From NCBI RefSeq assembly GCF_003073045.1, contig NC_037593.1, forward strand, positions 29,329,367-29,393,366: 64,000 nucleotides of DNA, read 5' to 3'. A program made the translations under genes and the position numbers. Source of the DNA: Pomacea canaliculata. Lineage: Eukaryota. Below are positions 1,798 to 61,706 of this stretch, piece after piece. The notes beneath the pieces are model-generated. The model saw only the letters and a list, made by a program, of their open reading frames with translations, did not search any database and was not told the origin of the DNA. Positions within the stretch are counted from its first letter, which is position 1, and every line of letters begins with the position of its first letter.

Positions 1798-3217
1798 GCC
1801 GGTATGTCTGCAGGTCCTGCTTCAGTGACAAAGAATAATTTCTCTCAGGTTTTAGTTCAACAATTATCTCGTGTTTATTCTCTCGACTCCTCTAAATGAC
1901 AAATAATTTGATAATAACTAAAGTTTATGAAACATACCTACCGCGTTCAAAAACTGCTGTAAATTATGTCTTGAAACCGCACCCTTTTCAGTAGAGGCTA
2001 GCAGATGTTAACCCTTTTGGGGAAACCATTCATGCGATTCAATCTCCGAAGACGATCCTCAGTTTAGGAGAGCAGTGTTGATGGGCATTAAATGCATGAG
2101 TAGAAGATAAACCACATGAATAAAATGTTGCCGGATGTTTTCGCTTGTTGGAGTCTGCGAATCAAATGGCTGGTCAAGAAACCCTTGATCGCTCACGTGA
2201 GCAGGCGAGCCTGCATACACACTGTGTCGCAATCGTGTCACATCCAGGCACGTGATTCTTTTAATATTGTATCGCACGTGATCATACAGTACCGATAGCA
2301 AAAACACAAATCATGTAACTTTATTCTTTACCTCTCTGATGTCACCTGATAAAGACTGCCAGGCCGTCACGTCAATCACGTGACTCAAACCACATCTCTC
2401 ACAACTTGCGGCTGACCTTTATCACCTTTGTCAACTCCATCACCAGTTTAGTGATGAATGTCAACTGCTGCTCTGTGCGCGCGCCATTGCGATGGGATGT
2501 CTTGTTTCTGTATTTTCGAGCGTTGATGAATGCAAGGTTTGTGGAGAGTTGTAGCACCATGCTAGCCAGGTAGCTGCACTGATTGTAGAAGATGTTCATC
2601 CGCTAAGCCGTCAATTCAATCAGCAAATAATCATCATCTTTTTCCTAACTTTCCCCAGTTTACTTTCCTGTCGCCTTGGTTATCTAGTTTCTGTCTGAGT
2701 GCAATAAACTATCTCAGCAAGCACATATCGGAGGGGATAGAAAACTGGTGTCTGAAACCAGAGGCGCACCGTTTCAAAACCCTTGTAGCACAGCAAACAT
2801 TCTCTCAATCGACACAGCTGTCAGAGATGGGCACACGACTTCACAGAGAGTTGAGGCAATAAGAAGAAGGAAAAGGCAACCGTTCTCACAAAAACAAGTC
2901 CCAAAGGAAAGTGAGTTGTCTAACATTTTCCTCCCCAAAAGATCGGAAGAGGATAGCAGGCAACCTTGATCATTTATACAACATTAGTACAGTCATCGTA
3001 GTAACCCTCGTCGCTGTTATCCTCATCATAAAGACACAGATTCATACAATTTTCGGATCATTTATTAACATTCGCTATGTGTCCATATATTTTCATCCAA
3101 TGCACTCCAATGTGTTCTGTCATGCGAGACACACGTTGTTAACCAACTGCATCAAACGCTCATATGAAATGAGTAAAGTTCGCGAGCGTTTGATGGAAAC
3201 CTATACCAGGTCATAGT

Positions 3218-3327
3218 TCACGAATATTGAAGAACATATGGCAATCCTTCCATCCGTTCTTTAATGATGGCGTCCATTTTTTCGCTCATGGCCACCGTGA
3301 AGTAGTTCTTCCAGTCTCCTATCTCCC
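3218..3327 (-). CDS. SULT-2 coding exon 5 (3'-PB '[13 protein letters not shown]' and C-terminus)
   Basis: '(G)[35 protein letters not shown]'. TGA stop at 3218-3220. 110 nt. Sum of exons = 984 nt = 328 codons. Confidence 0.8.
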
Positions 3328-3360
3328 CTTCAAGAATACAAGGATTGGGATATGGTTAGA

Positions 3361-3470
3361 GAGCATTACAAATTGACACACGCACACCGTCTCGCTCTCT
3401 GTCTCTCTTTCTCTCTCGCTCTCTCTCTCTCTGTCTCTTTCAACGCGCTTCGTATTCATCCACACAATTT
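3361..3470. repeat. Imperfect (CT)n/(CTCTGT)n microsatellite in SULT-2 intron 4
   Basis: 'cgtctcgctctctgtctctctttctctctcgctctctctctctctgtctctttc'. Confidence 0.8.
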
Positions 3471-3560
3471 CCTTGTGCGCTGACCGGTAAAAAAAAATTA
3501 TTTTAAAGTGCATTCATTGAGAAATATTTAGCATTTAATGCTGGCACAGCTGTGACTGAC

Positions 3561-3756
3561 CTTTTCGATAAAACTTGGAGTAATTTTTCTTCTTATCTCC
3601 ATCTTCATCTTTATCTGGAGGACGCACGGGCACTTTGAGTTCTGCCCCCTTCTTCAAGTTGTTGAAGCTGCAGGCGTCGGCGATCTCTTCACACAGAGAG
3701 TCGCTGACATTCAGCTCCAAGAAAACAGCCAGCTTCTTCACATTTTCAACAGGGTT
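3561..3756 (-). CDS. SULT-2 coding exon 4
   Basis: 'tctcatag|AACCCTGTTGAAAATGTG'. 'NPVENVKKLAVFLELNVSDSLCEEIADACSFNNLKKGAELKVPVRPPDKDEDGDKKKNYSKFYRK(G)'. GTCAGT donor. 196 nt. Confidence 0.8.
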
Positions 3757-4043
3757 CTATGAGATAACAACGAAAATATGTCAGCAATGAAATAAAGGGT
3801 TTCAGCAGCTTTAGACACGTGTAAAAATCCTGCTCTTGCCCAATGTCTTTCTTTGTGTGAACGAAATGACAAACGGATGTCGATGAACTTATATTACAAT
3901 ATTATTATTATACGTAGAAAAAGATATAAAAAAGATTTAAAACAAAACGAATATTGGCTCAGCAGACGTTAGGAATTTGTTTTAATTGTTGGATCATCAA
4001 CATCAGTCGTGTATGGGGGTGGGAGACTTGTACATGCACTAAC

Positions 4044-4147
4044 CTTTTTCATGTCTTCGAAAGACAATGACAGCATAGGCATATCTTTGTTCTCTACAGT
4101 GAATGTGAAAACTTGTTTAAGGTGCGTGAAGTAGTTGCCGTGGTTGC
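4044..4147 (-). CDS. SULT-2 coding exon 3
   Basis: 'tttccag|GC..' acceptor. '(C)NHGNYFTHLKQVFTFTVENKDMPMLSLSFEDMKK'. GTTAGT donor. 104 nt. Phase 1 to phase 0. Confidence 0.8.
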
Positions 4148-5433: not shown

Positions 5434-7195
5434 GCTGGCACGTCTGCACGTGCTGCTGCACCAGACGAGTTTCATGTTAGTTCAACAGTTTCCGTGGGCG
5501 CAGAGACTTACAGATTTCATTCACATGCACTGTCTCTTTCTTCATCTCATTCACACTCACTTGAGTGTCTGTCTATCACTATCTCTCACTCACACACTCA
5601 TTCTCTCTCTTTTTTTTTTTTTGTCTGAAATGCTCGTGTAAAGGAACATTGTAACATGCATCTACAGTCTCTGAAGAAAATAAGTTAAATCAAGATATTT
5701 ATTTGAACTAGCCACTACATAATGACAGGTGAGATTCAAGGTGATGAAGACAGATACAAACAGACAGCAAGAATAAACTTTAGAAACAAAGAGAGTCGAG
5801 AGTCTTTGACCGGATAAGACAATATACACATCGCCGCATGTATCACACTCATTCAAAGCTTCCCTGTACTAAAATACTAAACTATCTCAACAGTCATTCA
5901 CTTTAATATACTTTGATGGGTTCCTCGAAAAAATATGCTTAGTTTTAGAATTAAGGCGAATAAGGAAGCAAAGGTGAATGTAAGGCTTACAAACCACACG
6001 CAAGCGAGCGGATACCAGTTGTGGTGTAATGCAACCACTTCACTATGGCGGACGCAGACAGAAGCAGACGTCAACCAAAGCCAATGGTGGAATAATCTTT
6101 CCTACGATGATTTCTGAAAAAGCTGCAAAGTCGTGTCGCGCGGTGCTGGTGGTCGTTAGACAGTCTGTTAGGCGGCAAATGGAAATGTGTAACAAACTGC
6201 CCGCCGCCCTCGACTACAGGCCGAGCCGCTGAGCTGCTTTTCCGCCTGTGTCAAGACTGTGTAGCGTGTTTCTGTCACGTGATTCTATGAATAGCGCACA
6301 CTCACGTCATGTGACTCGTTCTGACATCACGGCTTTTATCCTGAACTGAATGTCGTCTGCTTTTGTTTGGCGATGAAATGACAGATGTGTGGTGCACGAT
6401 GGGATGTGCTAAGAGGCTCGCAGCATGCTAGATCATCATAGGAGAGGCCGCCATCGATCCGCTGATCGCAGACTGTAGAGGTTGACCTTGATGACCTCGA
6501 TCCGTTACCGCTAGAGCTCATGTCGTCTGCTGCTGGGCTTCTTTGTATCTCGTGGCCATTTGTGGGTCTGTAAACTTAATTGTTGTATGTATGATGAATA
6601 TGTTTATATGCGATTCTGTCGGCAATGACAGGTCGTCTGTGTTCGCGATGTGTGTGTGTCGGCAATGAAAGGTCGTATGTGTTCCTGATGTTCGTGTATG
6701 TCACTGTATTTGTAGCGTGCGTGTGTCTGTGTATGTGTATGTGATGTTGTCTAAGATATGCGTTCCTGTATGTGTGACTGTGTCTGCGATATGCATAATT
6801 GTGGTGTTTGCGTGCATGTGCGTGAGTGTGTATGACGTTAGGGTTTCTTGTGTTTAATATTTAAAGCAAAAAGCAGCTTTATAAATAACAAAGCATAATA
6901 TAAACCAGAGCTATTTTTATTACATGTTGTTCATGCCTTTTTTTTCCGAAACCGCTCTACCTGTAGTCCCGTGGCATATTATTCCACATAATATAGTGCC
7001 TCGGCCTTATCGGAAAATTTTATGAGGGTTGAAATGTTATCTATAAATCTTCAGATTACTAGTCACTCTTGACATCTATTGTTCACACCAGTAATATTGT
7101 AGCCAGCTATTAGTCACCGCCATCTGGAATACAGTAGCCACTGATCGCCATTTTAACACTCGAAATATTGCAGTGATGAGTCTGGATTTAGTTCT

Positions 7196-7305
7196 TTATG
7201 AGTACTGGAGGATGTAAGGAAGGCCTTCCATCTGCTTCTCTATGAATGGGTCAACTCTTTCACTCATAGCTACTGTAAAGTAGTTTTTCCAGTCGCCAAT
7301 CTCTC
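7196..7305 (-). CDS. SULT-3 coding exon 5
   Basis: 'ttttcag|GAGAGATTGGCGACTGG'. '(G)[35 protein letters not shown]'. TAA stop at 7196-7198. Exon sum 993 nt = 331 codons. Confidence 0.85.
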
Positions 7306-7768
7306 CTGAAAATAAAAGAAGGAAAGACTGTATTACAGGCGATAGTTGTTAGGGGGACAGTTTCGTAGAGCATGTCTCAGGATCATTACTTCCAAACACG
7401 CAAACACACAAACACACTGAAGTAACACTAGAGGCAGACAAGCTCTTTTTCCAACCTTTTCTTCAGTGTCTGGTAATTTTGTGCATGTATGATGTTAAAA
7501 TTTTCACTCTTTTTCTAACTTTAAATAGTTCCGAAATGGCTCAGATTATCACCGACCATGTTTAATGATTTCTAATCAAGTGATAAGACTGTCAACGGTC
7601 GAAATTTTTTTCTCTCATTTCTCTTCTCTCTGTGTGTTTACGAGCGAGCACTTAGTCATTGACAAATTGTGTGTTTAATTGATGTGCTTCAAACGATTTT
7701 AAACATGTGACTCAAAGCAAAAACAAAACAAAAATAGAAATCCTTTCTACAATATCGCGCCCTCTGAC

Positions 7769-7982
7769 CTTTTCTGTAAGATCTTGAGTGTCTAGGTTTT
7801 CTTTGTTCGTCGCCATTGACTTCTCTGTTGGGATGATGATGAGGAGGATGGTCGCGGGTTTTGAACTCTGCATTCTTCTTCAGGTTCTCAAAGTTGCATG
7901 CCTCAGCAATGTCTTCACAAATCGCATCGGAAATGTCGATCTCCAGGAATTTTGCCAACTTCTTTACATTTTGTGCGGGGTT
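7769..7982 (-). CDS. SULT-3 coding exon 4 (contains His/Pro-rich variable linker)
   Basis: 'ctcag|AACCCCGCACAAAATG'. 'NPAQNVKKLAKFLEIDISDAICEDIAEACNFENLKKNAEFKTRDHPPHHHPNREVNGDEQRKPRHSRSYRK(G)'. GTCAGA donor. 214 nt. Verified by hand translation. Confidence 0.85.
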
Positions 7983-8229
7983 CTGAGAAGAATACAGGAA
8001 TGAGGAGGTCATGTATGTTATTAAAGAATGGATTTTAGCTAGGGAATATTTCAAAATATATTTAAGCGTAGTGTGATTTAATACGCTATTATTCAAAGGC
8101 ATTGCAGAAATTAAATCTACACTGACATTTCAGGTACATAATAAAAATAAAACATAAAAATAAAAAAGTAATAAGTAAAATTTCTTTAAATTGTGGATAA
8201 TATTATTTATGGTTAAACTGTGAACTAAC

Positions 8230-8333
8230 CTTTTTCATGTCTTCAAAAGACAGAGAAAGTATAGGTACATCTGGATTGTCTCGAGTGAATGCATACATTT
8301 GCTTCATGTACTCGAAGTAGTTGTCAAAGTGTA
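8230..8333 (-). CDS. SULT-3 coding exon 3
   Basis: 'gtttcag|TACACTTTGACAAC'. '(L)HFDNYFEYMKQMYAFTRDNPDVPILSLSFEDMKK'. GTTAGT donor. 104 nt. Confidence 0.8.
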
Positions 8334-8624
8334 CTGAAACAGGGAAATAACTCATGTGAGTAAAACTGCATCACTTAGAAAAATTACCTCCCTTAAATAG
8401 CGTAGTCACTGTGGCTAATCAGCTGTGAGCCTACAGAAAAATACACAGCAATACTTATAAAATGTAACTCGACAGGAGAAATATAATACAGCCATCAGCA
8501 AGAGAGAAAACATAGGAAGAATGTTATAAATGTAACTATAGTCGTGTGCCCTGTATTGTTTTAAAAGTTTAGTCACGTGAAACATGAATGAATCATACAG
8601 AAATATGCAGAAAACCATGCCCAC

Positions 8625-8951
8625 ACTTTCCGTAGAAGTACAGCTCCAGATAATCGCTGAAGACCATGTCATTGAACAAGTCGCCATCTCTTCCTTTCAT
8701 GTGATGAAAATATGACACACACGAATCTTTGGGATTTCGGTACACGTGTAGCACCTTTGACCTTTTCTCCTTTATCTGCTTCCATGGTAACATGGAGAAC
8801 GGTAGGTGTGAGTTGAACATCCTGGGGGAGGGGATTTGCTGTAGTTTGTCAAAGTCACTGAACTCCATCATCAACTGTTCCTTAGGACGACTGTCGTACT
8901 CGGCTGTGCCCCGCACCAGCATAGACAGCACCTCCCACAGCCAGTGAGTGC
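8625..8951 (-). CDS. SULT-3 coding exon 2
   Basis: 'ttcccag|GCACTCACTGG'. '(G)THWLWEVLSMLVRGTAEYDSRPKEQLMMEF..NSHLPFSMLPWKQIKEKRSKVLHVYRNPKDSCVSYFHHMKGRDGDLFNDMVFSDYLELYFYGK(C)'. Donor GTGGGC (weak). 327 nt. Confidence 0.8.
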
Positions 8952-9185
8952 CTGGGAAGTTAATAAAATCGTTATTTTATAATCTTTCCCTTTTTCATAG
9001 TGGCATTCATCTAGAATGGTGGAATTAGTAGCTTTACCCCCGCATTAGAAAAATAATTGCTCCCTAGTACTCATTTAAAGGATGATCAAAAACGAGAAAT
9101 AGAAGGGAGCCTATACGGTTTGCTGGGAAGGAGGGAAGAAAGTAGTAGGTCAAGCAGAACGACGACACGACAAGGACTCACGCAC

Positions 9186-9423
9186 CTGCCTTAGGATAGG
9201 CGCAGAGGAAAATGTCGTCGTCACGGAGCTGCAGAGAACGAAGGTTAGCGATGTGAGTCTCCCAACTCGTCAATCGTGGACGTTTCGGGGGGAGTGCCCA
9301 TCCTTCGAGGGTATAATTCAAAGGCCGAGGATCGTCTCCGAGAAAGTTCAAACTTCCAGTCTCGCCAATGAAAGCCTCAGATCCTGTGTCGTCTGCTAGC
9401 TTCTGCGGATTTTCTGACGCCAT
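9186..9423 (-). CDS. SULT-3 cytosolic sulfotransferase, coding exon 1 of 5
   Basis: ATG at 9423 (minus) 'MASENPQKLADDTGSEAFIGETGSLNFLGDDPRPLNYTLEGWALPPKRPRLTSWETHIANLRSLQLRDDDIFLCAYPKA(G)'. GTGCGT donor. Matches ORF 9178..9423. Confidence 0.8.
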
Positions 9424-10989
9424 GTTGTTAGCTTCTCTGAAAGCAAGATTCTGCTGTCGTGTCCGTAATCATGGAAGTAAAATAACAAAATAAAGTCAAA
9501 TAAAAGTTGAATATACAGAAAATATTTCTCATTTTAACTAGCCAAACACCTCGTGATCCACTTTTTACATCGGTACACATGCAGTAAACGATATGGTGAA
9601 CTGTCGATAAACTACTAAACTTTTTATTACGAGGTTCATGTTTGCTGCACTCTTACACAGCAACTGTATCTGTCATGTCAGATTATACAAACAACATTAC
9701 TATTTCCTCTTAGAATGTTTAACCCCTGACCTCTCATCTATAATGTTTCTGCTTTATGAGTTAAATGACAACATCCACAACTGAATGAATGTACACATGC
9801 GAAAAACACATTTTATCAAAGCTTTACGGTCATACCTGACTGACTACGGATAAAGAAGAAAAGGAAGTCCTCGAACACTTGGTCTTCAAGACTCCAGCGT
9901 CTGACTGTATATGCTCTGTGCTGTCTTCTGGTTAAAACTGTTTTCTGTATGATGGTACAGGTCTAGTCCTTGCCCACGGCAAACGTTTGTCACCGTTAAC
10001 TAACCGACACACTCTTTAAATAGCGGGTCGTACTCAATGCTGACCTCAAGGAGATAATGATCTCTAATCAGGTTCTTACATCTCGTTATATCTCTAACTC
10101 TGTGAGATGATTATTTCTGCCTCAGCACTCTTGGCTGGATAATGAGGCTCGCGACAAGATTGCCGCCATTTTGAACTAATTATAAAGTGATCCTGAGTTA
10201 TTTTGTTTTGGAGTATTCTAAATATAAAGTTATTTTTTCATTCGAGAATTTGTCATAAGCAAGAAAAAGAGTTGTGGGTTTTCTTGTGCTGAAAAGATCA
10301 CCTTAACCCTCGTCTCTACTAATCCTAGGGTAAACAAACCCTCTGTCTTATTGAAGACATGTTCTACATGTATTTGGATTGGAGCACCCAGCGTATTTGC
10401 TCACGTGTTGTCAACAAGAACAGTTTCAGAAGTTAAAATTATGTTTATCTTCCTACTAGATTAAATTTGCTTTTACGTATATCAAGGTGAAGGCTCTGAT
10501 TTGTGATAGAAATTTTTTTTTAATTCAGTAAGCACAAAGCATTGCCGTGAGAATATCACCCGATGTGATCTCAGGGTGGGACACATAAAAGCTGGCGGTT
10601 ATAAAGCGGGTCTTTCACACGACGGGTAGGAATTTATGGGTGGGATAGTCGACTGGCTTACTGGAGGAACATGATTTTCTCCAGACAGAAAGTACACACT
10701 AAACGCTTAGCCTCAGAAAATAGTTTAGCATGTCTACAAGCGATGATGTAAAGATATCTTTATTTGCTCTACTTAATGTTGCATGAATTACTCTAAGGTC
10801 ATGAACCGTTAGATGTAAGAGATTACTAATCAGCAAACAGCCCTCGGACAATTATGTTGAAAGATGTCGCTGCGTGTACTGTTATCTTCCGGGTAGACTT
10901 ACAGATAGCTTCTCGGTCAATTCTCGGTTGTAAGACCTGGATCGTCAAGGTTCAAGCGAATCGTGCCACATTTCAACCCATGGCGGTCC

Positions 10990-11075
10990 AGACAGGTAGA
11001 TGTCTATCTGGGAGACTGAGCTACATCTTCAACCTTACAGTCACGTGACGAGGCATGTTTTGACCCCTGAACTAC
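10990..11075 (+). repeat. Solo copy of the GTCACGTGAC-bearing repeat arm (same family as 16223-16610)
   Basis: 'gagctacatcttcaaccttacagtcacgtgacgaggcatgttttgacccctga' matches both arms of the 16.2-16.6 kb element. It also matches the downstream 'ttgacccc(t/c)ga' of the left arm. Confidence 0.5.
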
Positions 11076-12223
11076 GGCCGTCCACCCGTGATTTGTACAA
11101 CTGACCATACTCGCTCTGTTCATGATGTAATTTCTTCGGGGAAAAGATTGAGCACTGCAACCACACTATTCTTTTTCATCGTGCAATAATCTCTCGACAG
11201 TCCGATAAAAAGAACCCAACACAAGAAATGTTGGACTAGAGTCACATACCTGTAACTGCAAGGTTTTATCGTAGATGGGATAAGACCCGAATAGCTTGAA
11301 CTTTCCACCTGTTTGGGGGTTTGTTTGTTTTTTTAGAAATAATTTTAATGGTTTTTACACCTGACAACAAAGATCTCTCAAGGTGGCGGTGGTATTTAGT
11401 GGAGGTGGTGCTTTATTTCATTCGGAAGGAAATCGTAAGATCCCTGTTACTGAAACCTACTGATCCCTGATATGCGGAAAGGATTTCATAGTCTTTACTG
11501 CGCGTTTTTCCAAGATTAAGACCGCCCTCACCTTAAGCCTATTGACCTGAAAAAGGTCATGAGATGACCTGTACCCTTACATTACTGATAGTCCATGTCA
11601 GTATTAATGAGTTGTGATGAAGGATTGCCTGCATAACTCATCGCTGTATAAATATGTGGGCTGTGTGAATATTCTGGTTTATACGGACCGTAAATTATAA
11701 CATGTAATTAATATATAATATTCAACATATAATAAGTTTAAATAGTATTTTCCCAGGTTCCTAGCTGAAAGTGCAGATCTGTACACAAATATTGAAACAG
11801 GAAGACAAGACACAAATTTCTGATATGTATTAATTACCAATATGGTGTATATTATAGAATCGCAAGATATGATCAGCATGAGTATAAATTTATTGACAAA
11901 TTTAAAAACAAACACACACATACACACTCTACATGAAAAAGTCCTTAACAGCAAGCCAGAGAATGAACATACTGTCATCTTTATCATTAGAAAATCTGTC
12001 AACTAAATGAAAGGTCCCATTTATGGTATTTAAATATGTAAATCCGCATATATTCATTTCAGTCTTTGCCTCTAGTCTTGTCTAAGAATGTCATAGCCTG
12101 ATGATCATCACTTGTGTCTGTTCTTGACATCTGGAATAATACAGTTTAATTATCACAACTTGTTTCTGTTCTTGACATCCAAGATACCACACGGAATTGT
12201 TAGTTCAGAGTTAGTTCGTGGCT

Positions 12224-12333
12224 TTAGGAGTATTGTAAAATGTAGGGAAGGCCCTCCATCTTTTCCTCTATGAGGGGATCCACTCTTTCGTTCATTTCTG
12301 CTGTGAAGTAGTTCTTCCAATCCCCGATTTCTC
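12224..12333 (-). CDS. SULT-4 coding exon 5
   Basis: 'ttctag|GAGAAATCGGGGATTGG'. '(G)[35 protein letters not shown]'. TAA stop at 12224-12226. Exon sum 996 nt. Confidence 0.85.
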
Positions 12334-12707
12334 CTAGAAAAAAGTGAAGCAAAGATACTGTGGATTTTATACAAATGGATACATATTTTTTATTTCTTAA
12401 TTATATTTTTACTCTCTCACACTCACACGCACGCACACACACACTCACACGCACGTACGCACACATTCATATATATATAAATACACAACATTTATTCACT
12501 CACTCCAACTCCCATATCCAAATTTATCTACCTATTGGTGGTTTTGCGCAAAGTATTTTGTTAATAGGAGTATGATTAGATTCTACCCTAGAATGTAACA
12601 CCTCTTCACTTCAACTTTCATATCTTTCTTCGTGTTTTTGTGTTGAGAAGGCTTCTTTAAAGTACACAGGATTAAGAAAATTTCTGTAATTTGTCACCTT
12701 GTCTCAC

Positions 12708-13900: not shown

Positions 13901-14212
13901 TTTTTCCGTAGAAAAACAATTCAAAATAATCACTGAAGTCCATGTTTCTAAATCCCTTCATGTGATGATAATACGACACACACGAGTCCTTGGGGTTTCG
14001 GTACACGTGTAGCACCTTTGACTTCTTCTCCTTCATTTGTTTCCATGGTAACATAAAAAATGGCAGGTGTGAGTTGAAGATCCTAGGGGAAGGCGTTTGT
14101 TCCAGCTTCTCAAGATCGCTCATCTCCATCATCAACTGTTCTTTAGGGCGGTCATCGTACTGAGCTTTGCCCTGGAGCAGCATGGACAGCACCTCCCACA
14201 GCCAGTGAGTTC
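13901..14212 (-). CDS. SULT-4 coding exon 2 (312 nt, 5 codons shorter than most paralogs)
   Basis: 'gccatag|GAACTCACTGG'. '(G)THWLWEVLSMLLQGKAQYDDRPKEQLMMEM..NSHLPFFMLPWKQMKEKKSKVLHVYRNPKDSCVSYYHHMKGFRNMDFSDYFELFFYGK'. GTGAGA donor. Confidence 0.8.
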
Positions 14213-14539
14213 CTATGGCAACACAACACAATGTTTACACATCGATACATTCCTCTGTGATGTTTAAGTGTTTTTCATCAAGAAGACCTTAGCCAATCAC
14301 CAGAAGCTATTTTTTTTTTTGTGTGAAAAATTCATGTAACAGTAAGACTTGGGACCAGACTATGAAGATCTGAAGGTACAGCAGTGTATATATATATATC
14401 AACCTTTGCCAGTAGGTAAACCGGTGTAGTATTCTCACAATAAGACTAAAGGATGCAAGAATTGATAAAGTGGTGGAATCAAGACAGCGAGATAAAAGAA
14501 AGAAAGAGGAAATGACAGGTGAATCAGCAATGCCCCGAC

Positions 14540-14777
14540 CTGCTTTTGGGTAAGCAAGGAGAAAGATGTCATCGTCACGGAGCTCAAGTGAACGGAGACC
14601 TGCGATGTGAGTCTTCCAGTTCGTCGAGCGAGGACCTCTCGGAGGGAGGTCCCATCCTTCGAGAACATAGGGCTTATGTCGAGGGTCGTCTCCGGGGAAG
14701 GACATGGTTCCAGTTTTGTTTGGCGCAGAGTCTGATTCAGTGTTTTCTGCCAGCTTCTCGGGTTCTTCTGTCGCCAT
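14540..14777 (-). CDS. SULT-4 cytosolic sulfotransferase, coding exon 1 of 5
   Basis: ATG at 14777 (minus) 'MATEEPEKLAENTESDSAPNKTGTMSFPGDDPRHKPYVLEGWDLPPRGPRSTNWKTHIAGLRSLELRDDDIFLLAYPKA(G)'. GTCGGG donor. Confidence 0.8.
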
Positions 14778-16222: not shown

Positions 16223-16610
16223 CGTCAGGAAAACTGATCTTCATCTTCAACTCGTCAGTCACGTGACACGACACGCGTTGACCCCGATGCATGTCATCAC
16301 ATTGGACTGCAGGCTGACGGTGTCGAATGATTTCTTTACCCGGTCTTTGCTCATCTTGTTGTTAGTCGGCTGCTTAATGATTTCCAGTCAAGTGATAAGA
16401 CTGTCGAGGAAATGAAATTGTTTGGTGCAGTCATGCGCAGTCGCAGCTTACATGTCTTCATGGCTGATCTTCGTTTTTTCATTACTTAAGCAGTTTGCAA
16501 ACCGGTTCGTAATTGAAACACGTGTGAGAATGGGTTGCAAACAATCTAGTCACGTGACTGTCGGGTTGAAGATGTAGAACAGTTTACCTGACGCCCCTCC
16601 GTCTCTAAAC
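16223..16610. mobile_element. Candidate MITE/foldback element with ~60-bp terminal inverted repeats, each carrying the palindrome GTCACGTGAC at its inner end
   Basis: Left arm 16223-16285 is 'ggggctcgtcaggaaaactgatcttcatcttcaactcgtcagtcacgtgac'. Right arm 16548-16610 'gtcacgtgactgtcgggttgaagatgtagaacagtttacctgacgcccc' is its near-perfect reverse complement. A solo third copy of the arm lies at ~10990-11075. Confidence 0.5.
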
Positions 16611-18056: not shown

Positions 18057-18294
18057 ATGGCGGCGGAAGAGCCACAGAAGCAGGTGGACGACACTTTGTC
18101 TGGAACCACGCCTGGACAGGCTGGAACTTTGAACTTTGTAGAAGGTGAAACTCAGCCTGTGAGCTACATTCTGGAAGGATGGGCTCTCCCTCCAAAGATG
18201 CCCCGCGTGACGAGCTGGGAAACTCACATCGCAGGACTTCGCTCCCTTCAGCTCCGTGAAGATGACATCTTCCTCTGTGCTTACCCCAAGGCAG
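18057..18294 (+). CDS. SULT-5 cytosolic sulfotransferase, coding exon 1 of 5
   Basis: ATG at 18057 'MAAEEPQKQVDDTLSGTTPGQAGTLNFVEGETQPVSYILEGWALPPKMPRVTSWETHIAGLRSLQLREDDIFLCAYPKA(G)'. GTTGGT donor at 18295. Confidence 0.85.
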
Positions 18295-21802: not shown

Positions 21803-21834
<32 letters not shown>

Positions 21835-47300: not shown

Positions 47301-49342
47301 CACTCACTCACTCACTCACTCACTCACTCACTCACTCACTCACTCACTCACTCACTCACTCACTCACTCACTCACTCACTCACTCACTCACTCACTCACT
47401 CACTCACTCACTCACTCACTCACTCACTCACTCACTCACTCACTCACTCACTCACTCACTCACTCACTCACTCACTCACTCACTCACTCACTCACTCACT
47501 CACTCACTCACTCACTCACTCACTCACTCACTCACTCACTCACTCACTCACTCACTCACTCACTCACTCACTCACTCACTCACTCACTCACTCACTCACT
47601 CACTCACTCACTCACTCACTCACTCACTCACTCACTCACTCACTCACTCACTCACTCACTCACTCACTCACTCACTCACTCACTCACTCACTCACTCACT
47701 CACTCACTCACTCACTCACTCACTCACTCACTCACTCACTCACTCACTCACTCACTCACTCACTCACTCACTCACTCACTCACTCACTCACTCACTCACT
47801 CACTCACTCACTCACTCACTCACTCACTCACTCACTCACTCACTCACTCACTCACTCACTCACTCACTCACTCACTCACTCACTCACTCACTCACTCACT
47901 CACTCACTCACTCACTCACTCACTCACTCACTCACTCACTCACTCACTCACTCACTCACTCACTCACTCACTCACTCACTCACTCACTCACTCACTCACT
48001 CACTCACTCACTCACTCACTCACTCACTCACTCACTCACTCACTCACTCACTCACTCACTCACTCACTCACTCACTCACTCACTCACTCACTCACTCACT
48101 CACTCACTCACTCACTCACTCACTCACTCACTCACTCACTCACTCACTCACTCACTCACTCACTCACTCACTCACTCACTCACTCACTCACTCACTCACT
48201 CACTCACTCACTCACTCACTCACTCACTCACTCACTCACTCACTCACTCACTCACTCACTCACTCACTCACTCACTCACTCACTCACTCACTCACTCACT
48301 CACTCACTCACTCACTCACTCACTCACTCACTCACTCACTCACTCACTCACTCACTCACTCACTCACTCACTCACTCACTCACTCACTCACTCACTCACT
48401 CACTCACTCACTCACTCACTCACTCACTCACTCACTCACTCACTCACTCACTCACTCACTCACTCACTCACTCACTCACTCACTCACTCACTCACTCACT
48501 CACTCACTCACTCACTCACTCACTCACTCACTCACTCACTCACTCACTCACTCACTCACTCACTCACTCACTCACTCACTCACTCACTCACTCACTCACT
48601 CACTCACTCACTCACTCACTCACTCACTCACTCACTCACTCACTCACTCACTCACTCACTCACTCACTCACTCACTCACTCACTCACTCACTCACTCACT
48701 CACTCACTCACTCACTCACTCACTCACTCACTCACTCACTCACTCACTCACTCACTCACTCACTCACTCACTCACTCACTCACTCACTCACTCACTCACT
48801 CACTCACTCACTCACTCACTCACTCACTCACTCACTCACTCACTCACTCACTCACTCACTCACTCACTCACTCACTCACTCACTCACTCACTCACTCACT
48901 CACTCACTCACTCACTCACTCACTCACTCACTCACTCACTCACTCACTCACTCACTCACTCACTCACTCACTCACTCACTCACTCACTCACTCACTCACT
49001 CACTCACTCACTCACTCACTCACTCACTCACTCACTCACTCACTCACTCACTCACTCACTCACTCACTCACTCACTCACTCACTCACTCACTCACTCACT
49101 CACTCACTCACTCACTCACTCACTCACTCACTCACTCACTCACTCACTCACTCACTCACTCACTCACTCACTCACTCACTCACTCACTCACTCACTCACT
49201 CACTCACTCACTCACTCACTCACTCACTCACTCACTCACTCACTCACTCACTCACTCACTCACTCACTCACTCACTCACTCACTCACTCACTCACTCACT
49301 CACTCACTCACTCACTCACTCACTCACTCACTCACTCACTCA
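41341..49342. repeat. Giant uninterrupted tetranucleotide microsatellite (CACT)n, ~8.0 kb, ~2000 units (AGTG on the opposite strand)
   Basis: Every 60-nt line from 41341 to 49320 reads cactcactca... with no variant base. The tract ends 'cactcactca|gacttttttt' at 49342 and begins after 'gtctagtatct' at 41340. Confidence 0.97.
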
Positions 49343-50300
49343 GACTTTTTTTATTTGTCACTGTCAGATTTGAACACACCACCTTTCAGTCTTCAGACCT
49401 CGTCTTTAGCCACCAGGCTATACAGCCGTTAGCAACTAACGTGCCTAAACTTCGTGAAAAAGTCAAGTTCGCCGTTTACAACAATCAACAAATCCGCTGA
49501 ACCGAGACGCACACGCCCAGAACCGGTGACGTCATCGACAACGAGGCTGCTGTTAACGAAGATGACTAGTGCACGACGGACCACAAACACCCTGCTACTG
49601 TCCCCCTAGGTCCCTCCAACTGCCAGGAACACACACGTCATACTCAATGGAGTGAACAAGATCGGAGTGACAGACGGCAACAACCTACCCGATCCTCTCC
49701 CCTCCAGACATCATTGTACGCGTGGTCAGAGTTGCCTGCCCAGTCAATGGAGGACATCGAAAACGGACAGCAGTACCCTACAAAGAACACCAACAAGAAA
49801 TAAGTGACAAGATGGCCCGGCCCTCCACAGTTCATGACAATTGCTATCCCATAATGTCGAGGACTGTGTGTGGACGGCAAGACACAATCAAGACAAGGGA
49901 GAGAATAAGTTTCACTGACCCAGTGACTACGCGACACGAGGTGTCCGTGCTAACGGTCACCAGGACACAGCACGGGACTCACCCGTGAAAATATTTCACA
50001 TCTTCAACTGCGACATCGACGGTTTGCTCGTGAAAACACACTATCCTGGCTTTGTACAAAGCATTAACGTGTTTGTTATTGTGTCTTACAGACATTGCTT
50101 GACGTCAGCAGTACACTGCAATGTTTCTCTGACTTCCAACGATACTTCAGTCCTGCTTCTACACTTACATCGCAAGGAAGAGCTGCCGGCCGATATCCTT
50201 GTTTTAGTAAAAAATGTATTTAATAAGTTTTTGCATAGACTGCAGTGTACGGTTGACAATTTTATTTTATTGCAATTTGACACCGAGTTTAACGAGACAA

Positions 50301-51293
50301 GTAGTTTACTGGCATGGACTCCTGTAGCCTACTGGCCGAAGTGGCTCATCATGTCTAGAGTACGCCCCGTGGAAAGCGGAATCAAAGCTTTCCCTCCTCC
50401 ACATTTACATCTGTAAGCTTTGTGTGTGTGTGTGGGTGCGTGCGTGCGTGGATGAGAGAGAGAGAGGGTGTGTGTGTTCTAGAGAGTGAGCGTTCTCTCT
50501 CTCTTTCAAGTCTCACTGGAGGGGTGCACGCATGTGTGTGTAAGAAAGAGCAAGATCACATTAAAAGAAATCCGTGATGACGCTCAATAAATAAATAACT
50601 AAATCATTATTCACCTTTCGATTTGTAACCGCATAAAATTCTAGAATGTGGAAAGGGATGGACTGCGGGTCAGCATTCATATGAAGACTGTTTTTCTACT
50701 CTCACCATCATGACAAGTGATCACTTGTTAGGATTTTCGAAACAAGTGAGATCACATCAGAGTTTGAAAAATATCAGTCTCATCAAAATAACCGACCTGA
50801 GGTCACTTGTAGGCGGCCATCTGGATGCACATCAAACACATGAACAGATGGCTGGCTTTATGCTTACAAACACTACCTGATGGAACATTACATGTGGAAA
50901 CACAGTGGCTAGTCAAGCAGCTAGTCCATCATGCCTTTGGCTTGAGTTTGTACTGAGCAACGCAAGCACTCGTAACCAAGCTAGCTATGTGCTAGCATAA
51001 TGCTTGGCATGGCCAGGATGAACAGACAAACAAACAAGCTAGCTATGTTCTAGCATAATGCTAGGCATGGCCAGGGTGAACAGACAAACAAACAAGCTAG
51101 CTATGTGCTAGCATAATGATTGGCATGGCCAGGGTGAACAGATAAACATGAATAAATGAGCGAAGTAGTTTACTGGCATGGACTCCTGTAGCCTACTGGC
51201 CGAAGTGGCTCATCATGTCTAGAGTACGTCCCGTGGAAAGCGGAATCAAAGCTTTCCCTCCGCCACATTTACATCTGTAAGCTTTAAATAGCT
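50301..51293. repeat. Two ~128-bp direct repeats (50301-50428 and 51166-51293) flanking a ~60-bp x3 tandem minisatellite (50940-51140) and (TG)n/(GA)n tracts
   Basis: 'agtagtttactggcatggactcctgtagcctactggccgaagtggctcatcatgtctagagtacg(c/t)cccgtggaaagcggaatcaaagctttccctcc(t/g)ccacatttacatctgtaagcttt' occurs twice. Between them, 'caagctagctatgtgctagcataatgcttggcatggccagggtgaacagacaaacaaa' repeats three times. Confidence 0.8.
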
Positions 51294-51649
51294 CCTTATA
51301 AATCAGGTAGCCACTTTTATTTTTACTGAAAAGAATGAGCAGGATGGAGAGTGGGGGGGGTGGGGAAGCAGAATCCTATCCACAGGCCACAAACCAGTGA
51401 CCATATGCAGTAACTTCCGAACACGAAGTCTACCCTTATTCTAAGGGGTGACTAATACATTTACTTTTGCATTATCCTAACATAAAAAATTCCATTTAAA
51501 ATGAAAGAAAAACTGGATAAAAAATAAAAATACGTTAAATGAACAATGTCAGTGACACTAACTCAGATGAAGTGATGATCCAGACATTTTAGAGTTGGCT
51601 AATATCGATGCAGTCTTGGCTTGCATCACATTAGAATGCTAAATTTTGA

Positions 51650-52350
51650 TTGCCGAGGTAGTCACGTGACCGTGGTGACGGGCCTGGCGACCTACCCGTC
51701 GTAAAATATGCGGCGTTCAATCGGAGCGCCAGTTGAGAAGGTGAAGAAATGGGTGATTTACCAGTCGACACACCACGTGACCTATCAGACGCGCGCGCAG
51801 CAATCAGCGGAAGGGGGTAGGGGTTCGGTTACCAATTAGGTCGGGAGTGCCGGCGATTAGCTGCCGAGCCTTGCACCTTGGCCCAGTGGGCCGCGGGCGG
51901 ACGCAAGTCAAACAAGTGTGCCGCGCGAGGACCGCGCCAGTGCACGTGCGACGCGTGGCGACACGGTGCGCCTAATGAGGCGGTCAGCCTCGTGCCGCGA
52001 GGGGCGCCCGTGCACCAGACCTGACGTAGGGCTGTTGTGCGGCGTCAAAGTTGCAGCAGCTCGTCGAACGCCGCCGACCTCGGGTCCGAGTCCCCCGATG
52101 TACCACTCCCGTGCACCCACCAGCCTCAAACATCCTCAATAGCCTCCCCTGGCAAAAGAGAAGTGGTGCGCGGGAAAATGACACGCCGGAAGTGGCATGA
52201 AAGTGATGGCGCCTTCACACACCAGTTGGCAATCATTGACTAGGTTACCGCAGCTTATTCTTCCATTGTCGGAGCAAACCAGCGAGCAGTTTGCCCTCGC
52301 CCCCCGCTTCTGTCAGACTGTAGAGCGGGACCCACATCTGTGTGCGCGCG
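51650..52350. other. CpG-rich, GC-rich island-like segment (~700 bp) without a convincing ORF. Candidate CpG-island promoter or non-coding locus.
   Basis: Dense CG dinucleotides, e.g. 'gccgcgggcggacgcaagtcaaacaagtgtgccgcgcgaggaccgcgccagtgcacgtgcgacgcgtggcgacacggtgcgcc..cgtcgaacgccgccgacctcgggtccgag'. Includes GTCACGTGAC at 51661-51670 and CACGTG at 51774. Both strands carry only overlapping ~70-aa ORFs typical of GC-rich noise. Confidence 0.5.
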
Positions 52351-53040
52351 TGCGAGAGAGAAAGAAGGATAATCGTGAAGGAGTGAATAAAACTTACATT
52401 TGAGAAACACCTCCAAGAAAAGACAAACGTATAGTTCAGAATAAACGCAAAAATAAAAACGGTATCTTGAGAGAATGTCGATGCTAGATATCAGATATCA
52501 GATATAAATTATAGCAAATTGTATTGAAACAGATTTTCAATGGTGTGAAGAGACACGCTGGTCATTAGTGTCAAAGTGTCAAATGATACAGTAAATTATT
52601 TAACACCTACATACAGCAAGGTACACGACAGTAAACCCAGACATTATTGTGACTGTCTGTGGTAAAGTTTGTTTTAAATATACATTATTTTTTCATAAAA
52701 TAAGTAAACTATAAGCTAAACTACATCGTCCTCGTCATGTGTCATTTTAAAATTTGGACTGACATGTAGATGTTAAATTGTTACATATTTTTAAAAAGTT
52801 GATTTTGTCAGAGCTTTCTAGCATCAATGCTGTTAAATTACAATAGATAAGTTGATGTGTTTGGCAAAATATGTCGGACTTCTCTATTATATTTTATGTG
52901 AGATATGTTTGCCACATTCCACAGCTGGTCCATGCACAAAAAAACAAATTCCAAATTTCCGAACCCACAGTCCGAACACTTCCACTGTCACACACATCTT
53001 ATGTTCTTCCGACATTCAATTCCCCCTCCCCCCTAAAAAA

Positions 53041-53270
53041 AATCTCCAGTTGAAAATGACACCAAGTCTCCACTTGAATATAACACCAAGTTTCCACTTC
53101 TAGGTAACACAAATATGTCCACTTGAATATAACACCAAGTCTCCACTTGAATATAACACAAAGTTTCCACTTCTAGGTAACACAAATATGTCCACTTGAA
53201 TATAACACAAAGTTTCCACTTCTAGGTAACACAAATATGTCCACTTGAAAGTAACACAAAGTTTTCACTG
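53041..53270. repeat. Minisatellite, ~22-24 bp unit x ~9-10
   Basis: Alternating units 'ccacttgaatataacaccaagtct' / 'ccacttctaggtaacacaaatatgt' repeated in tandem. Confidence 0.8.
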
Positions 53271-57699: not shown

Positions 57700-58760
57700 T
57701 GTGGAGGATCAACCAGACCATCTTATCTGACGTCCCATCTGTCATCGACAGCCACTGCCAGCAGATGCAGGATCATCGATTAAAAACTTGTCCATTCTTC
57801 GAGTGATCAATACAGAGCTTTTAGCAAGATCAACTTTGGATGGACTTTAACAGCTTTCTTATCTGCTAGTTGATAACGGCTCGCAGTTTGTATGTCATCT
57901 CGCCTCTGCCTGTCTGTCCATTGCTAACAGAAGAATTACAGCTATCAGGTTGTGTCCAGTATGTCAGAGTTTTCCCTTCACATGTCGTCTGCTCCATGTT
58001 CTACATTTTGGCCTGTAGACAAGTATGTTTTCATCACCTCCGCTCGAAACCGATACATGCCTCGTTTCTAAGTAAGGCTGTGAAATAGTTGCTGACATGG
58101 TGTAAGACTCCAATTAACTAACCTACAATTAGGCATTGCCACCTGTGGGTCTCTCTCTCTCTTGTGTGTGCATACTTAGTGTTTTGGTAAACATCTAGGA
58201 GAAAATTGTAGTTAAGAGAATAAAACCGAGGCCTGACACAAAGGTCCCATCTGTCATTGCGAACAGATATCAGATTATCTATTAAAATCTTTCTCATTTC
58301 AGTGTGATCAGTGCTGAACTTGAAGTAAGATCCCTATTGGATCGATTCTTGCATCGTTCTTAGCTGCTAGCTGATAAAGGTTTTTTCTGTGTTCGCGTAC
58401 GCCATACACTGTTAAGGCGTCTGGAAAAGGAGTGGTCACGTGACATTACTTTTTTTGTTTTCTCTCGTAATTTGTTGCTGGAGCCGGCCGGTTGTTTGTA
58501 AATTCTTTTTAGTACAAATCTTGATTGATCTTTCTCTCAATAACCTTCGTAGCCTCTTTCATCATTACAAGAAATTTTTTTTTTAATTTTTAAAAAAACT
58601 AACAACCGGTTAATTATGCAATCATTCTATACTAAGAAACGTCAGAGCTTCCCTAAACGATGGTAAAGGACACCGGCTCCTGGACTATCCAGTAAAGAGA
58701 GACAAAATGTTAATCATATATAAATTTCTCAGAATTGTCACTAAGTAAAATTGTTCAAGA
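57700..58760. repeat. Internally tandem-duplicated intergenic block (sub-units ~57700-58100 and ~58250-58760). It is a paralogous copy of the SULT-11 5' flank and intron-1 region (60560-62040), including a promoter-like segment with GTCACGTGAC at 58435-58444
   Basis: 'ggagtggtcacgtgacattactttttttgttttctctcgtaatttgttgctggagccggccggttgtttg' (58431-) vs 'ggagtggtcatgtgacagcattttttttctcttttctcccttcttgcgctggccgcttgtttg' (61691-). 'ggacaccggctcctggactatccagtaaagagagacaaaatgttaatcatatataaatttctcagaattgtcactaagta' (58671-) vs 'ggacgccggctcatgaaccctccagtatagggagacacaatgtgaatcatagacaaatttctcagagttgttgctaagta' (61941-). 'tttcttatctgctagttgataacggct' motifs recur at 57861, 58361 and 60661. Confidence 0.7.
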
Positions 58761-59362: not shown

Positions 59363-59558
59363 CTGAAAAACAAGTTTTATGCAAATATAGACACAATCTA
59401 AATACTAATTCTATATTTGACAAACCACTTGAAAGAGATGTAGACCTAATAAATTCAAATCTCTAAAATATCTCAGAATGGAACCAGAGAATACTGATGC
59501 CTGTTGTCAAGACAAAATTGTGTAAATTGTATCAGAGATTTGCAGTGGCCTTACAAAC

Positions 59559-59662
59559 CCGTTTCATATCTTCAAAGGAGATGGATAATATAGGAATGTT
59601 CGGATTTTCTTGGGTAAAATCGTGAAACTGCCGCAAGTAACTGAAGTAAGCACCATAGTTGA
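59559..59662 (-). CDS. SULT-11 coding exon 3
   Basis: 'tgtttcag|TCAACTATGGTGCTTACTTC'. '(x)NYGAYFSYLRQFHDFTQENPNIPILSISFEDMKR'. GTTTGT donor. 104 nt. Confidence 0.8.
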
Positions 59663-59905
59663 CTGAAACAGAACAAAATGTACAATCCCTTTATTATTGT
59701 AAGTCATCGAATGGAAAGATGAGACAGACAGGGACAGAGAGGGGAAGGCCAAGAAGCAGATACAGAAAGAGTGTAATCAACGTGTAGAACATACCTGTAC
59801 ACATACACACATATATGTGACAAGGGGCAGATAATTTCTGCTGTAAAAGTTACTCGTTTGCTCCCCTTTTTATGCAAAAAAAAATAATAAATCATATTTG
59901 CTTAC

Positions 59906-60223
59906 CTTTGCCATCTAAGAATCGTTGAAAAAATTCTGAAAATTCAACGAATGTATTGAAAAGGTTCTTTTGCATGAAGTAGAAGGATACAACAGTGTCC
60001 TTAGGATTGCGATAAACATGAAGGACCTTGACACGCTTGTCTCTGATCTGTTGCCACGGCAACATAGAAAACGGAAGATGCGTATTGAGGATGCGCGGAG
60101 ACGCCATGGCCGCTACCATGTCCACGTCGACAAAGTCGACCATCAGCTGTTCCTTGCGACGAGTCTCGTACTCGGCCTTGCCTTGCAGCAACATGGAGGT
60201 CACCTCCCACAGCCAGTGAGTTC
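59906..60223 (-). CDS. SULT-11 coding exon 2 (318 nt)
   Basis: 'ttggtcag|GAACTCACTGG'. '(G)THWLWEVTSMLLQGKAEYETRRKEQLMVDFVDVDMVAAMASPRILNTHLPFSMLPWQQIRDKRVKVLHVYRNPKDTVVSFYFMQKNLFNTFVEFSEFFQRFLDGK(G)'. GTAAGC donor. Confidence 0.8.
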
Positions 60224-61300
60224 CTGACCAACAGATATGGACACAGAGTGAGTTGTTGACTAACAAAGATGGACACGCCTAATTAATTCGACATACCGCA
60301 AAATGGGGTTCATATCTCCCACAATAGCCATCTGTCGCAGTCTTGGTCAATGTAACAGGTTAACAATAGTCCTTCCCTCCACAGCAAAAGTTTCTTTTAA
60401 TCACTGAAGATTTCCATGCATACAACCTCAGCTCCATCTCATTGAAGTGAGGGAGGGATCCAAGGGTTAAATTTGTTAATTTTAAAGAGTGGATCTTTTG
60501 TATAAAGAATTTTTTTTTTATTTTGAAGGAATTGGTGGCTGTCAACTATGTGAGGTTCAGTCCTTGCGAGCAGACGGCTGCCATGTCGATTTAAAGCTTG
60601 CCCGTTGTATTTGTGATTGATGCAGATATAGGAACTTTTAAACAAGATTCTAAAGCCAAAACCTTTCTTATCTGATAGTTGATAAAGGCTTTCTTGCACA
60701 CCCACGTGTGTGTGGTGGTGGTGGTGGTGGTAGGAGACAGGTACAGCCATTATGTCCTGCCCCACTTTGCCAGAGCTTTGAAGTACAAGCCGTCTGCTCC
60801 ATGTTCTACATTTTGACCTGTTCATGAAATGTTTTTATTACCCCACCTTCTGATCTTTTCTGGCGTGTTTCATCAGAAAGGCATTACCATTTGTGATTTT
60901 GCTCTCTCTCTCTCCCTCCTTCTCGTGTATGTGTGTATGAATATTTAGGCCCTCGTTATATTTTTAATCAAGAACAAGGGGTGTGCTTATCAAATGAGTT
61001 CGTGCAAACAAGTGTTTGCCAGCAAGCATTCGTGTAAAGGTGAGAAAAATGTGAGGCAATTGTTAGAACTACAGCGAGTAAATCTGCTGAACAGCAGTGG
61101 TCGTGGGTTACCAAATTAAACCTCAGCCTCTTTCTGATCATAGTCAGACGTCTCTCACCTTATTCTGATATCTGTTATTTCCCCCATCAACCTGAGTCCT
61201 ATCTCTCTCTCTCTCTGACCTCTTTCACATCACATCATACTTCACATCAATCTCATCCCTCTCACTACAGTCTGACCCCTCTCAGAGTCGGACATCTTAC

Positions 61301-61502
61301 CTGTTTTGGGGTAGGTACACAGCAGGATGTCATCGTGTCGAAGCTCCATGTTGCGCAGATCATCGATGTGTTTCTCCCACTCCTCTTTGTTAAATCGGAA
61401 ACTGGGCAGAGGAATACCTTCTACCAGCCAGTAAATTGGATCAAGCTTGCCATCTTTCTCGTTTTCCATCTTGAAAGAGCTGTTGTGTTCCTGGCTTGTC
61501 AT
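61301..61502 (-). CDS. SULT-11 cytosolic sulfotransferase (subfamily III), coding exon 1 of 5
   Basis: Probable ATG at ~61502 (minus) 'MTSQEHNSSFKMENEKDGKLDPIYWLVEGIPLPSFRFNKEEWEKHIDDLRNMELRHDDILLCTYPKT(G)'. GTAAGA donor. The ORF track extends upstream to ~61559 with a non-ATG start, so the start is uncertain by 1-2 nt and up to 57 nt. Confidence 0.65.
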
Positions 61503-61696
61503 TCCACCTGAAGCAACGGTCGGGACTGCACTGACAGCGACGAAATTATCTAGTGTCACGCTTATGTTTGTTTAACAATTTACCTCTGGGAGACCCTTTA
61601 AATATTTTCTTTCGTCTGCTATCGGCAGTGTCTGTCCTGTGACTGCTGAAGGCCGTGCGAGAGCATTTTTATAGGTGTCAAGTTATGGGAGGAGTG

Positions 61697-61706
61697 GTCA
61701 TGTGAC
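61697..61706 (-). promoter_or_regulatory. E-box variant GTCATGTGAC ~140-200 bp upstream of the SULT-11 start
   Basis: 'ggagtggtcatgtgacagc'. Its duplicated paralogous copy at 58435 carries the perfect palindrome GTCACGTGAC. Confidence 0.4.

Follow-up and report, generated by a model that had tools for sequence, protein, structure and literature searches.

The stretch of DNA analysed here (64,000 nucleotides of Pomacea canaliculata; assembly GCF_003073045.1, contig NC_037593.1, positions 29,329,367 to 29,393,366 of the forward strand), hereafter the window, harbours 11 multi-exon cytosolic sulfotransferase (SULT) genes (PF00685 Sulfotransfer_1), arranged in tandem or in inverted orientation and designated G1 to G11 (tblastn, Pfam assignment; Table 1). 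Querying with a SULT exon yields full-length homologues that are caenogastropod sulfotransferases, and the exons of the Pomacea canaliculata proteins P0001, P0002, P0003, and P0006 can be placed in the window at 93–100% identity, with P0001 (C0Q70_08306) matching 38256–39314 at 99–100% identity. The subject of this report is a palindromic decamer, GTCACGTGAC, which is built around the CACGTG core of an E-box and recurs in this array. Its distribution and genealogy, together with the anatomy of the sequences around it, suggest that it forms part of SULT promoters that have been copied along with their genes.

Six perfect copies of the decamer occur in the window. An earlier, sequence-only reading of this DNA had counted at least six, locating those at 30357, 51661, and 58435 exactly and misplacing those at 11040, 16258, and 16549 by 6, 18, and 1 bp (as 11046, 16276, and 16548). 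Dinucleotide shuffles of the window yield 0.05 perfect copies on average and 1 at most, in keeping with the roughly 0.03 that had been estimated as the chance expectation, and sites with at most one mismatch number 13 against 2.2 expected. The excess extends to TCACGTGA (12 in the window, 1.4 expected) and to the CACGTG core (39, with 11.9 expected), and a GT flank is found on 20 of the 78 CACGTG half-sites, where the base composition of the window predicts about 5. Low-complexity sequences aside, GTCACGTGAC is the most frequent palindromic 10-mer of the window, and TCACGTGACT is its most frequent 10-mer when the conserved exon 2 coding motif is set aside as well. The 5% most CpG-dense 300-bp windows include the copies at 6274/6306, 16549, 30357, and 51661. 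Part of the CACGTG excess is coding sequence, since another palindrome, TACACGTGTA, is present four times (8741–8750, 14002–14011, 19139–19148, and 22800–22809) and every copy lies in SULT exon 2 coding sequence.

The concentration of the motif upstream of SULT genes, which the sequence-only reading had proposed, is borne out by its distribution. The 21.6 kb of SULT intergenic DNA contain 4 perfect copies and 9 sites with at most one mismatch, against 0 and 2, respectively, in the 24.3 kb of gene bodies. When each lineage of demonstrable paralogues is reduced by masking to a single member, SULT intergenic DNA retains 2 perfect copies, where 0.014 would be expected, and 6 sites with no more than one mismatch, where 0.42 would be expected. 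Neither count was matched in 1000 dinucleotide shuffles (P < 0.001), in which sites with at most one mismatch reached a maximum of 4. The comparison with a shuffled background that had been suggested earlier thus returns an excess both before and after paralogues are collapsed, and the occurrence of the decamer is non-random and far above chance. With regard to position, a distance of 130–600 bp from the start codon, as initially described, applies to three or four copies, the other sites upstream of SULT genes lying 849–1626 bp from the ATG. Near-copies at 2375, 6274, 6306, 28808, and 61697 lie within 1–2 bp of where they had been noted, and the CACGTG at 37914 is present, but the near-copies at 8572 and 38291 had been missed.

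The six perfect copies do not represent six independent events, and fall into about three lineages. The copies at 11040, 16258, and 16549 share a paralogous block (52–96 bp by BLAST). Its alignment in G3, G4, and G5 sets in about 15 bp upstream of the E-box and reaches 110–130 bp downstream of it, and in G4 and G5 it spans about 250 bp. The block has a single orientation relative to the gene in all three cases, 1.49–1.63 kb upstream of the ATG, and only these three copies of it turn up across the window and the fetched loci. In the three-way alignment, the 12-mer GTCACGTGACTG, which contains the E-box, is the longest invariant run, and GTTGAAGATG follows it; the flanks of the 12-mer are 73–86% identical in pairwise comparisons. 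Between the block and the ATG, homology persists as remnants (68% over 139 bp in G3/G4; 72% over 72 bp in G4/G5), the introns of G3–G5 being no longer alignable and their exon 1 about 73% identical.

The G3–G5 block shows a promoter-like anatomy. An invariant CAGT is located 23 nt after the decamer, inside an initiator-like (T/A)CAGT(C/T)T, and GTAAGT or GTCAGT donors follow 137–234 nt after the E-box and are kept in orthologous contigs from a related Pomacea. A strong acceptor lies 9–13 nt before the ATG in G3–G5, which places the ATG in an exon other than the first. The block is hence probably a promoter followed by a non-coding exon 1, the putative limits of which, as read from consensus signals, are given in Table 1.

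Two of the decamers in this lineage, those of G4 and G5, mark the inner ends of a 55-nt inverted repeat (84% match; 16213–16267 and 16549–16603, 281-bp spacer), and the sequence-only reading had interpreted this structure, together with the copy at 11.0 kb, as arms like those of a miniature inverted-repeat transposable element (MITE). The inverted repeat at 16.2–16.6 kb is real, but the copy at 11.0 kb lacks a partner arm. Collinear inverted matches go on outward (16132–16164 with 16667–16697), and no target-site duplication is present at 16213–16603, the outer flanks (...CACAAGGAC and CCGTCTCTA...) having nothing in common. Within the window, a MITE is thus largely refuted by the lack of a target-site duplication and by arms that are not terminal, since homology runs past them. 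G4 and G5 face each other head to head as inverted paralogues, every exon of one having its inverted match in the other, and the alignments indicate that the supposed MITE arms are the centre of this head-to-head gene duplication. Likewise, the dispersal of the motif by a mobile repeat, which had been offered as its origin, does not agree with the paralogue-equivalent positions of the copies, the outward homology, and the missing target-site duplication; as read from these alignments, the decamer is spread by gene-plus-promoter duplication, including one head-to-head inversion, and not by transposition. Conservation between G4 and G5 is uneven, with exon 2 being 93% identical (13944–14222 and 18928–19206) and exon 1 being 73% identical (14531–14713 and 18121–18303), a contrast that suggests gene conversion limited to part of the genes.

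A second lineage unites the sites at 30357 (G8), 61697 (G11), and 58435, which share ATGTCAC[G/A]TGACCAC and flanking similarity. Local alignments within this lineage score 34, 30, and 51, where shuffles reach no more than 29, with the G8 site scoring 34 against 61697 and the 58435 alignment scoring 51. The CCAAT box noted earlier after the G8 decamer is located at 30386–30390, 19 nt on, and a TATA-like AAATAAAAG lies at ~30459–30467, about 90 bp downstream. In G11, TATAAAA is found 24 bp downstream of the E-box in gene orientation (within 61665–61675). The site at 58435 belongs to a segment immediately 3' of G11 (58428–58747) that duplicates the G11 promoter region (61690–62020) at a spacing of ~3.27 kb (3273 and 3262 bp). 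Since no SULT exon follows this duplicate, it constitutes an orphan promoter relic, probably left by a lost member of the array.

The perfect decamer at 51661 is not part of any SULT gene and lies at the margin of the segment with the highest CpG density in the window (51501–52450), with CACGTGACCT (51774), CCAAT (51832), and CACGTG (51943) nearby. BLAST finds no repeat in common between this copy and any other, no Pfam match exists among ten open reading frames in 49.6–57.4 kb, where no SULT-like exons are seen either, and no Rfam family or tRNA is found in the window. This CpG-dense segment may serve as promoter to a transcript that is unannotated or non-coding. Just upstream of 51661 lies a composite repeat, in which two 131-bp direct repeats (96% identical; 50291–50421 and 51155–51285) flank three tandem 58-bp units (50974–51148), and a tandem array with a period of ~24–25 bp (TCCACTTGAATATAACACMAAGTY...) occupies 53045–53269 in the same gene-poor stretch.

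Near-copies are found upstream of further genes. The site at 2375 is the distal member of four CACGTG within 190 bp (2194, 2249, 2275, and 2377) upstream of G1, and the pair upstream of G2 lies within a CpG-dense stretch (5951–6750). In local alignments compared with shuffles, no homology to other copies or to each other is detectable for the near-copies of G1, G2, and G7, and neither the E-box contexts of G6, G7, and G10 nor the upstream regions of G1 and G2 show homology above shuffle level, so that none of these near-copies is assigned to a lineage.

Two Logan contigs from a related Pomacea correspond to 5887–12449 (L001) and 14194–18588 (L003) of the window at 92–94% BLAST identity. All 6 covered sites are intact in them, including 6274, 6306, and 11040 in L001 and 16258 and 16549 in L003.

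Table 1. Coordinates of SULT genes, decamer sites, and associated features in the window. Distances to the ATG are counted from the decamer start, in gene orientation; in donor sites, the slash separates exon from intron.
Feature	Positions	Strand	Remarks
G1	ATG 1797	-	tblastn
G2	ATG 5433	-	tblastn
G3	ATG 9423	-	tblastn
G4	ATG 14777	-	tblastn
G5	ATG 18057	+	tblastn
G6	ATG 23417	-	tblastn
G7	ATG 27469	-	tblastn
G8 (P0003)	annotated ATG 30567	+	tblastn
G9	ATG 33645	+	tblastn
G10 (P0001)	ATG 38256	+	tblastn
G11 (P0006)	annotated ATG 61502	-	tblastn
Near-copy ATCACGTGAC, 1 mismatch	2375–2384		G1, -586
Near-copies GTCACGTGAT (6274) and GTCATGTGAC (6306), 32 bp apart	6274–6315		G2, -849 and -882
Near-copy GTCACGTGAA	8572–8581		G3 intron, not upstream
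Perfect decamer, G3 upstream	11040–11049		-1626
Perfect decamer, G4 upstream	16258–16267		-1490
Perfect decamer, G5 upstream	16549–16558		-1508
Near-copy ATCACGTGAC	28808–28817		G7, -1347; 1758 bp upstream of G8
Perfect decamer, G8	30357–30366		-210 from annotated ATG
Near-copy ATCACGTGAC	38291–38300		G10 coding exon 1, 35 bp after ATG
Perfect decamer outside SULT genes	51661–51670		edge of CpG-dense stretch
Perfect decamer in orphan duplicate	58435–58444		
CpG-decayed copy GTCATGTGAC, G11	61697–61706		-204 from annotated ATG
G3 conserved upstream block	10903–11067	-	three-way paralogue alignments
G3 initiator-like CTCAGTCT	11013–11020	-	
G3 donor ATCT/GTAAGT	10897–10906	-	
G3 acceptor ttgctttcag	9437–9446	-	ends 13 nt before ATG
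G4 conserved upstream block	16031–16285	-	three-way paralogue alignments
G4 initiator-like ATCAGTTT	16231–16238	-	
G4 donor ATCT/GTCAGT	16025–16034	-	homologous to G3 donor
G4 acceptor ttttttttag	14791–14800	-	13 nt before ATG
G5 conserved upstream block	16535–16798	+	three-way paralogue alignments
G5 initiator-like AACAGTTT	16578–16585	+	
G5 donor ACAT/GTAAGT	16789–16798	+	
G5 acceptor attctttcag	18038–18047	+	9 nt before ATG
Putative non-coding exon 1	G3 ~11017–10903; G4 ~16235–16031; G5 ~16581–16792		predicted from consensus signals
Centre of head-to-head G4/G5 inverted duplication (391 bp)	16213–16603		

Several other features of the locus deserve mention. Between G10 and G11, the array is interrupted by (CACT)n repeats over 8 kb and by about 9 kb without a recognisable gene. 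The repeat tract (41341–49340) consists of exactly 2000 CACT units on end, 8000 bp with zero variant units, and so perfect and round-sized a tract raises the suspicion that it may be an artefact of assembly or consensus and not a true giant microsatellite. CT-rich microsatellite tracts occupy equivalent places at the 3' ends of G2 (3376–3446) and G6 (21751–21863). A 35-bp segment of the G4/G5 spacer (16371–16405) is 91% identical to part of a G3 intron (7559–7593; core TTTAATGATTTC.A.TCAAGTGATAAGACTGTC), and the orthologous contig L001 carries an indel at ~7537–7600, by this segment, which may represent a small repeat or mobile sequence. Furthermore, ~9470–9590 and ~17520–17800 are present in the window and absent or unalignable in L001 and L003, and would be indels at the species level that fall in the putative first introns of G3 and G5.

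The explanation that best accommodates these observations, and which is held with moderate confidence, is that the decamers are class-B E-boxes located in paralogous SULT promoter modules, copied together with the gene units and, presumably, bound by activating basic helix-loop-helix (bHLH) leucine-zipper proteins. According to this explanation, a class-B E-box (CACGTG core with GT/AC flanks) would have been built into SULT promoter modules, and tandem and inverted segmental duplication of whole gene units, promoter included, would have generated further E-boxes. In G3, G4, and G5, the E-box would precede a transcription start, a non-coding exon 1 of 115–212 nt, an intron of 1.2–1.5 kb, and the ATG exon, and in G8 and G11 it would operate at a distance of about 200 bp from the ATG, with CCAAT or TATA shortly downstream. 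A bHLH-leucine-zipper dimer, either USF-like or MITF/TFE-like, would bind these sites, activating most genes of the array and partly coordinating them, and the central CpG would make the site both methylation-sensitive and prone to decay. That much of the array receives a common E-box input is plausible in light of this arrangement.

A number of observations weigh against this explanation. Two near-copies sit in an intron (8572) and in a coding exon (38291), and among the 11 genes, G6, G9, and G10 lack a good copy upstream. The intact G11 gene carries a decayed CATGTG, the product of a CpG transition, and the perfect copy is found in the orphan at 58435. The retention of all 6 covered sites in a related Pomacea is weak evidence of constraint, because divergence is about 5%, many 50-bp windows are 100% identical, and retention of 6 out of 6 has a probability of ~0.05 by chance. 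The SULT loci of Littorina saxatilis, Babylonia areolata, and Batillaria attramentaria (94.5 kb), whose orthology to the Pomacea array is not established, contain no perfect copy and no upstream TCACGTGA; the association between SULT genes and the E-box is therefore lineage-specific at best, and this result argues against an ancient link. Lastly, gene conversion in the array may have homogenised the G4/G5 block, although it is not easily the source of the similarity of the G3 and G8/G11 copies.

An alternative that retains the promoter function of the decamer regards GTCACGTGAC as an element common in proximal promoters across the Pomacea genome, such as a USF-type site of many CpG-rich promoters, the recurrence of which would stem from ordinary promoter composition and would not denote array-specific co-regulation. 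The copy at 51661, which is free of SULT genes and lies in the most CpG-dense, promoter-like stretch with two more CACGTG and a CCAAT, is what such an element would look like, and sites of the USF and MiT kinds occur widely in animal promoters (PMC2835698; PMC8175148). However, a generic element does not account well for a density of 6 perfect copies in 56 kb of non-microsatellite window DNA against 0 in the 94.5 kb of other snail SULT loci, nor for the recurrence of copies in at least three SULT promoter lineages, and this alternative is considered unlikely. Neutral hitch-hiking, in which one or two chance origins of the motif were followed by copying with the surrounding DNA without any regulatory role, and in which recent duplication and gene conversion would account for its conserved look, draws on the small number of duplication lineages that hold copies, on the evidence of gene conversion in the array, on the intact orphan next to a decayed G11 copy, on the lack of conservation at distant snail SULT loci, and on the three genes without the motif. 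Yet the enrichment outlasts paralogue collapsing (P < 0.001), the flank bias reaches sites without detectable mutual homology (G1, G2, G7, and 51661), and the 12-mer is invariant where the surrounding sequence is 73–75% identical and the introns are saturated. An unconstrained CpG-centred palindrome should decay quickly, and the 24.3 kb of gene bodies hold no perfect copy, all of which renders neutral copying distinctly improbable. The seeding of SULT upstream regions by a MITE-like element carrying the decamer at its inner arm ends, to which the 391-bp structure with its 84% matching arms and the related single arm at ~10957–11067 had lent some appeal, is barely credible, since the arm ends lack a target-site duplication, similarity runs beyond the arms into the putative exon and donor with remnants through intron 1, the three copies keep orientation and ATG distance at the paralogues G3, G4, and G5, of which G4 and G5 mirror each other exon by exon, the block occurs at no other place in the window or the fetched loci, and the perfect copies at 30357, 51661, and 58435 have no repeat in common with it.

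The promoter-module explanation can be extended to a rewiring of the array in apple snails, whereby an expanded set of xenobiotic or hormone SULT genes would have come under nutrient- or stress-responsive MITF/TFE (CLEAR-type) or USF factors through an E-box fixed before the expansion of the array and kept by selection in most copies. This extension is speculative and regarded as doubtful. If it were true, it would imply a coordinated induction of sulfonation in an invasive, stress-tolerant species, and the location of the G3–G5 E-box at about −28 of a TATA-less initiator would be an unusual core-promoter position.

Which factor might recognise the decamer is a separate question. USF and MiT sites are both frequent in animal promoters, MiT factors also tolerate CATGTG variants, and the upstream element of the adenovirus major late promoter is a USF-type upstream E-box. 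The CLEAR element, named for coordinated expression and regulation of lysosomal genes, reportedly goes back to Sardiello et al. in 2009. All six perfect sites in the window match the 10-bp CLEAR palindrome GTCACGTGAC exactly, and they equally present the CACGTG core with GTCAC/GTGAC flanks of a USF-type class-B E-box. GTCACGTGAC is the CLEAR consensus of TFEB, enriched about 200 bp upstream of the start sites of lysosomal genes (PMC8175148). The identical decamer is contained in AGTCACGTGACAC, a site in the proximal promoter of human UGT1A1 that binds USF1/2 in supershift assays, is required for promoter activity, and loses affinity upon methylation of its central CpG (PMC2835698). In molluscs, a clam MITF has been reported to bind promoter E-boxes (PMC6620822), and MiT factors are therefore present and active in this phylum. 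The match to the MiT/TFE consensus highlighted by the sequence-only reading is thus exact, but the assignment is not established, given that the same decamer is a USF1/2 site (PMC2835698) and that the genes of the array encode cytosolic sulfotransferases, not lysosomal or autophagy proteins. Filing the motif under CLEAR fails on a defining feature of that class because its targets here are cytosolic SULT genes. The decamer fits USF as well as MiT/TFE, which cannot be separated on the motif itself, and it is reasonable to propose that it works like a USF or MiT E-box. Myc/Max is an unlikely factor in view of its flank preference and the strong T/A flanks at −4/+4, and CLOCK/BMAL and ARNT homodimers would be further candidate binders.

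If the E-boxes are functional, they would provide a simple handle on the joint switching-on of a recently expanded detoxification array in an invasive snail, and would illustrate how promoters travel with genes in tandem and inverted duplication, leaving islands and orphan relics behind. The case cautions that an exact CLEAR match is not evidence of TFEB control, since USF sites are identical. It also indicates that repeated motifs in gene arrays should be collapsed by paralogy before chance is estimated. The cis-regulatory architecture is otherwise ordinary, and adds another instance of a well-known type of element.

Among known systems, the USF element of UGT1A1 offers a close likeness. The decamer is identical, the G4 copy matches the 13-mer AGTCACGTGACAC, and both cases combine a phase-II conjugation enzyme as target, a methylation-sensitive central CpG, and a position, putatively proximal in the snail genes, adjacent to CCAAT or TATA. 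The genes differ, being snail sulfotransferases and not a vertebrate UGT. In contrast to USF-type elements, which lie ~60–100 bp upstream, the E-box of G3–G5 is located ~28 bp before the putative initiator. CLEAR elements are resembled in the exact consensus, in lying upstream of genes, which for G8 and G11 means some 200 bp before the ATG, and in occasional clustering (G1 and G2), and differ in their lysosomal targets and in that the decamer is absent from the SULT loci of other snails. The unit at 16213–16603 recalls MITEs in its sub-kilobase size and flanking inverted repeats, unlike which its arms are non-terminal and devoid of a target-site duplication, and its copies are tied to paralogous gene positions. 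The duplication of promoters in tandem arrays of detoxification genes, in which the gene and its 5' regulatory DNA are copied in tandem and inverted orientation, would in turn produce the expected pattern, with nothing unusual in the present case, including short regulatory islands that outlive introns and spacers and, at 58428–58747, an orphan relic.

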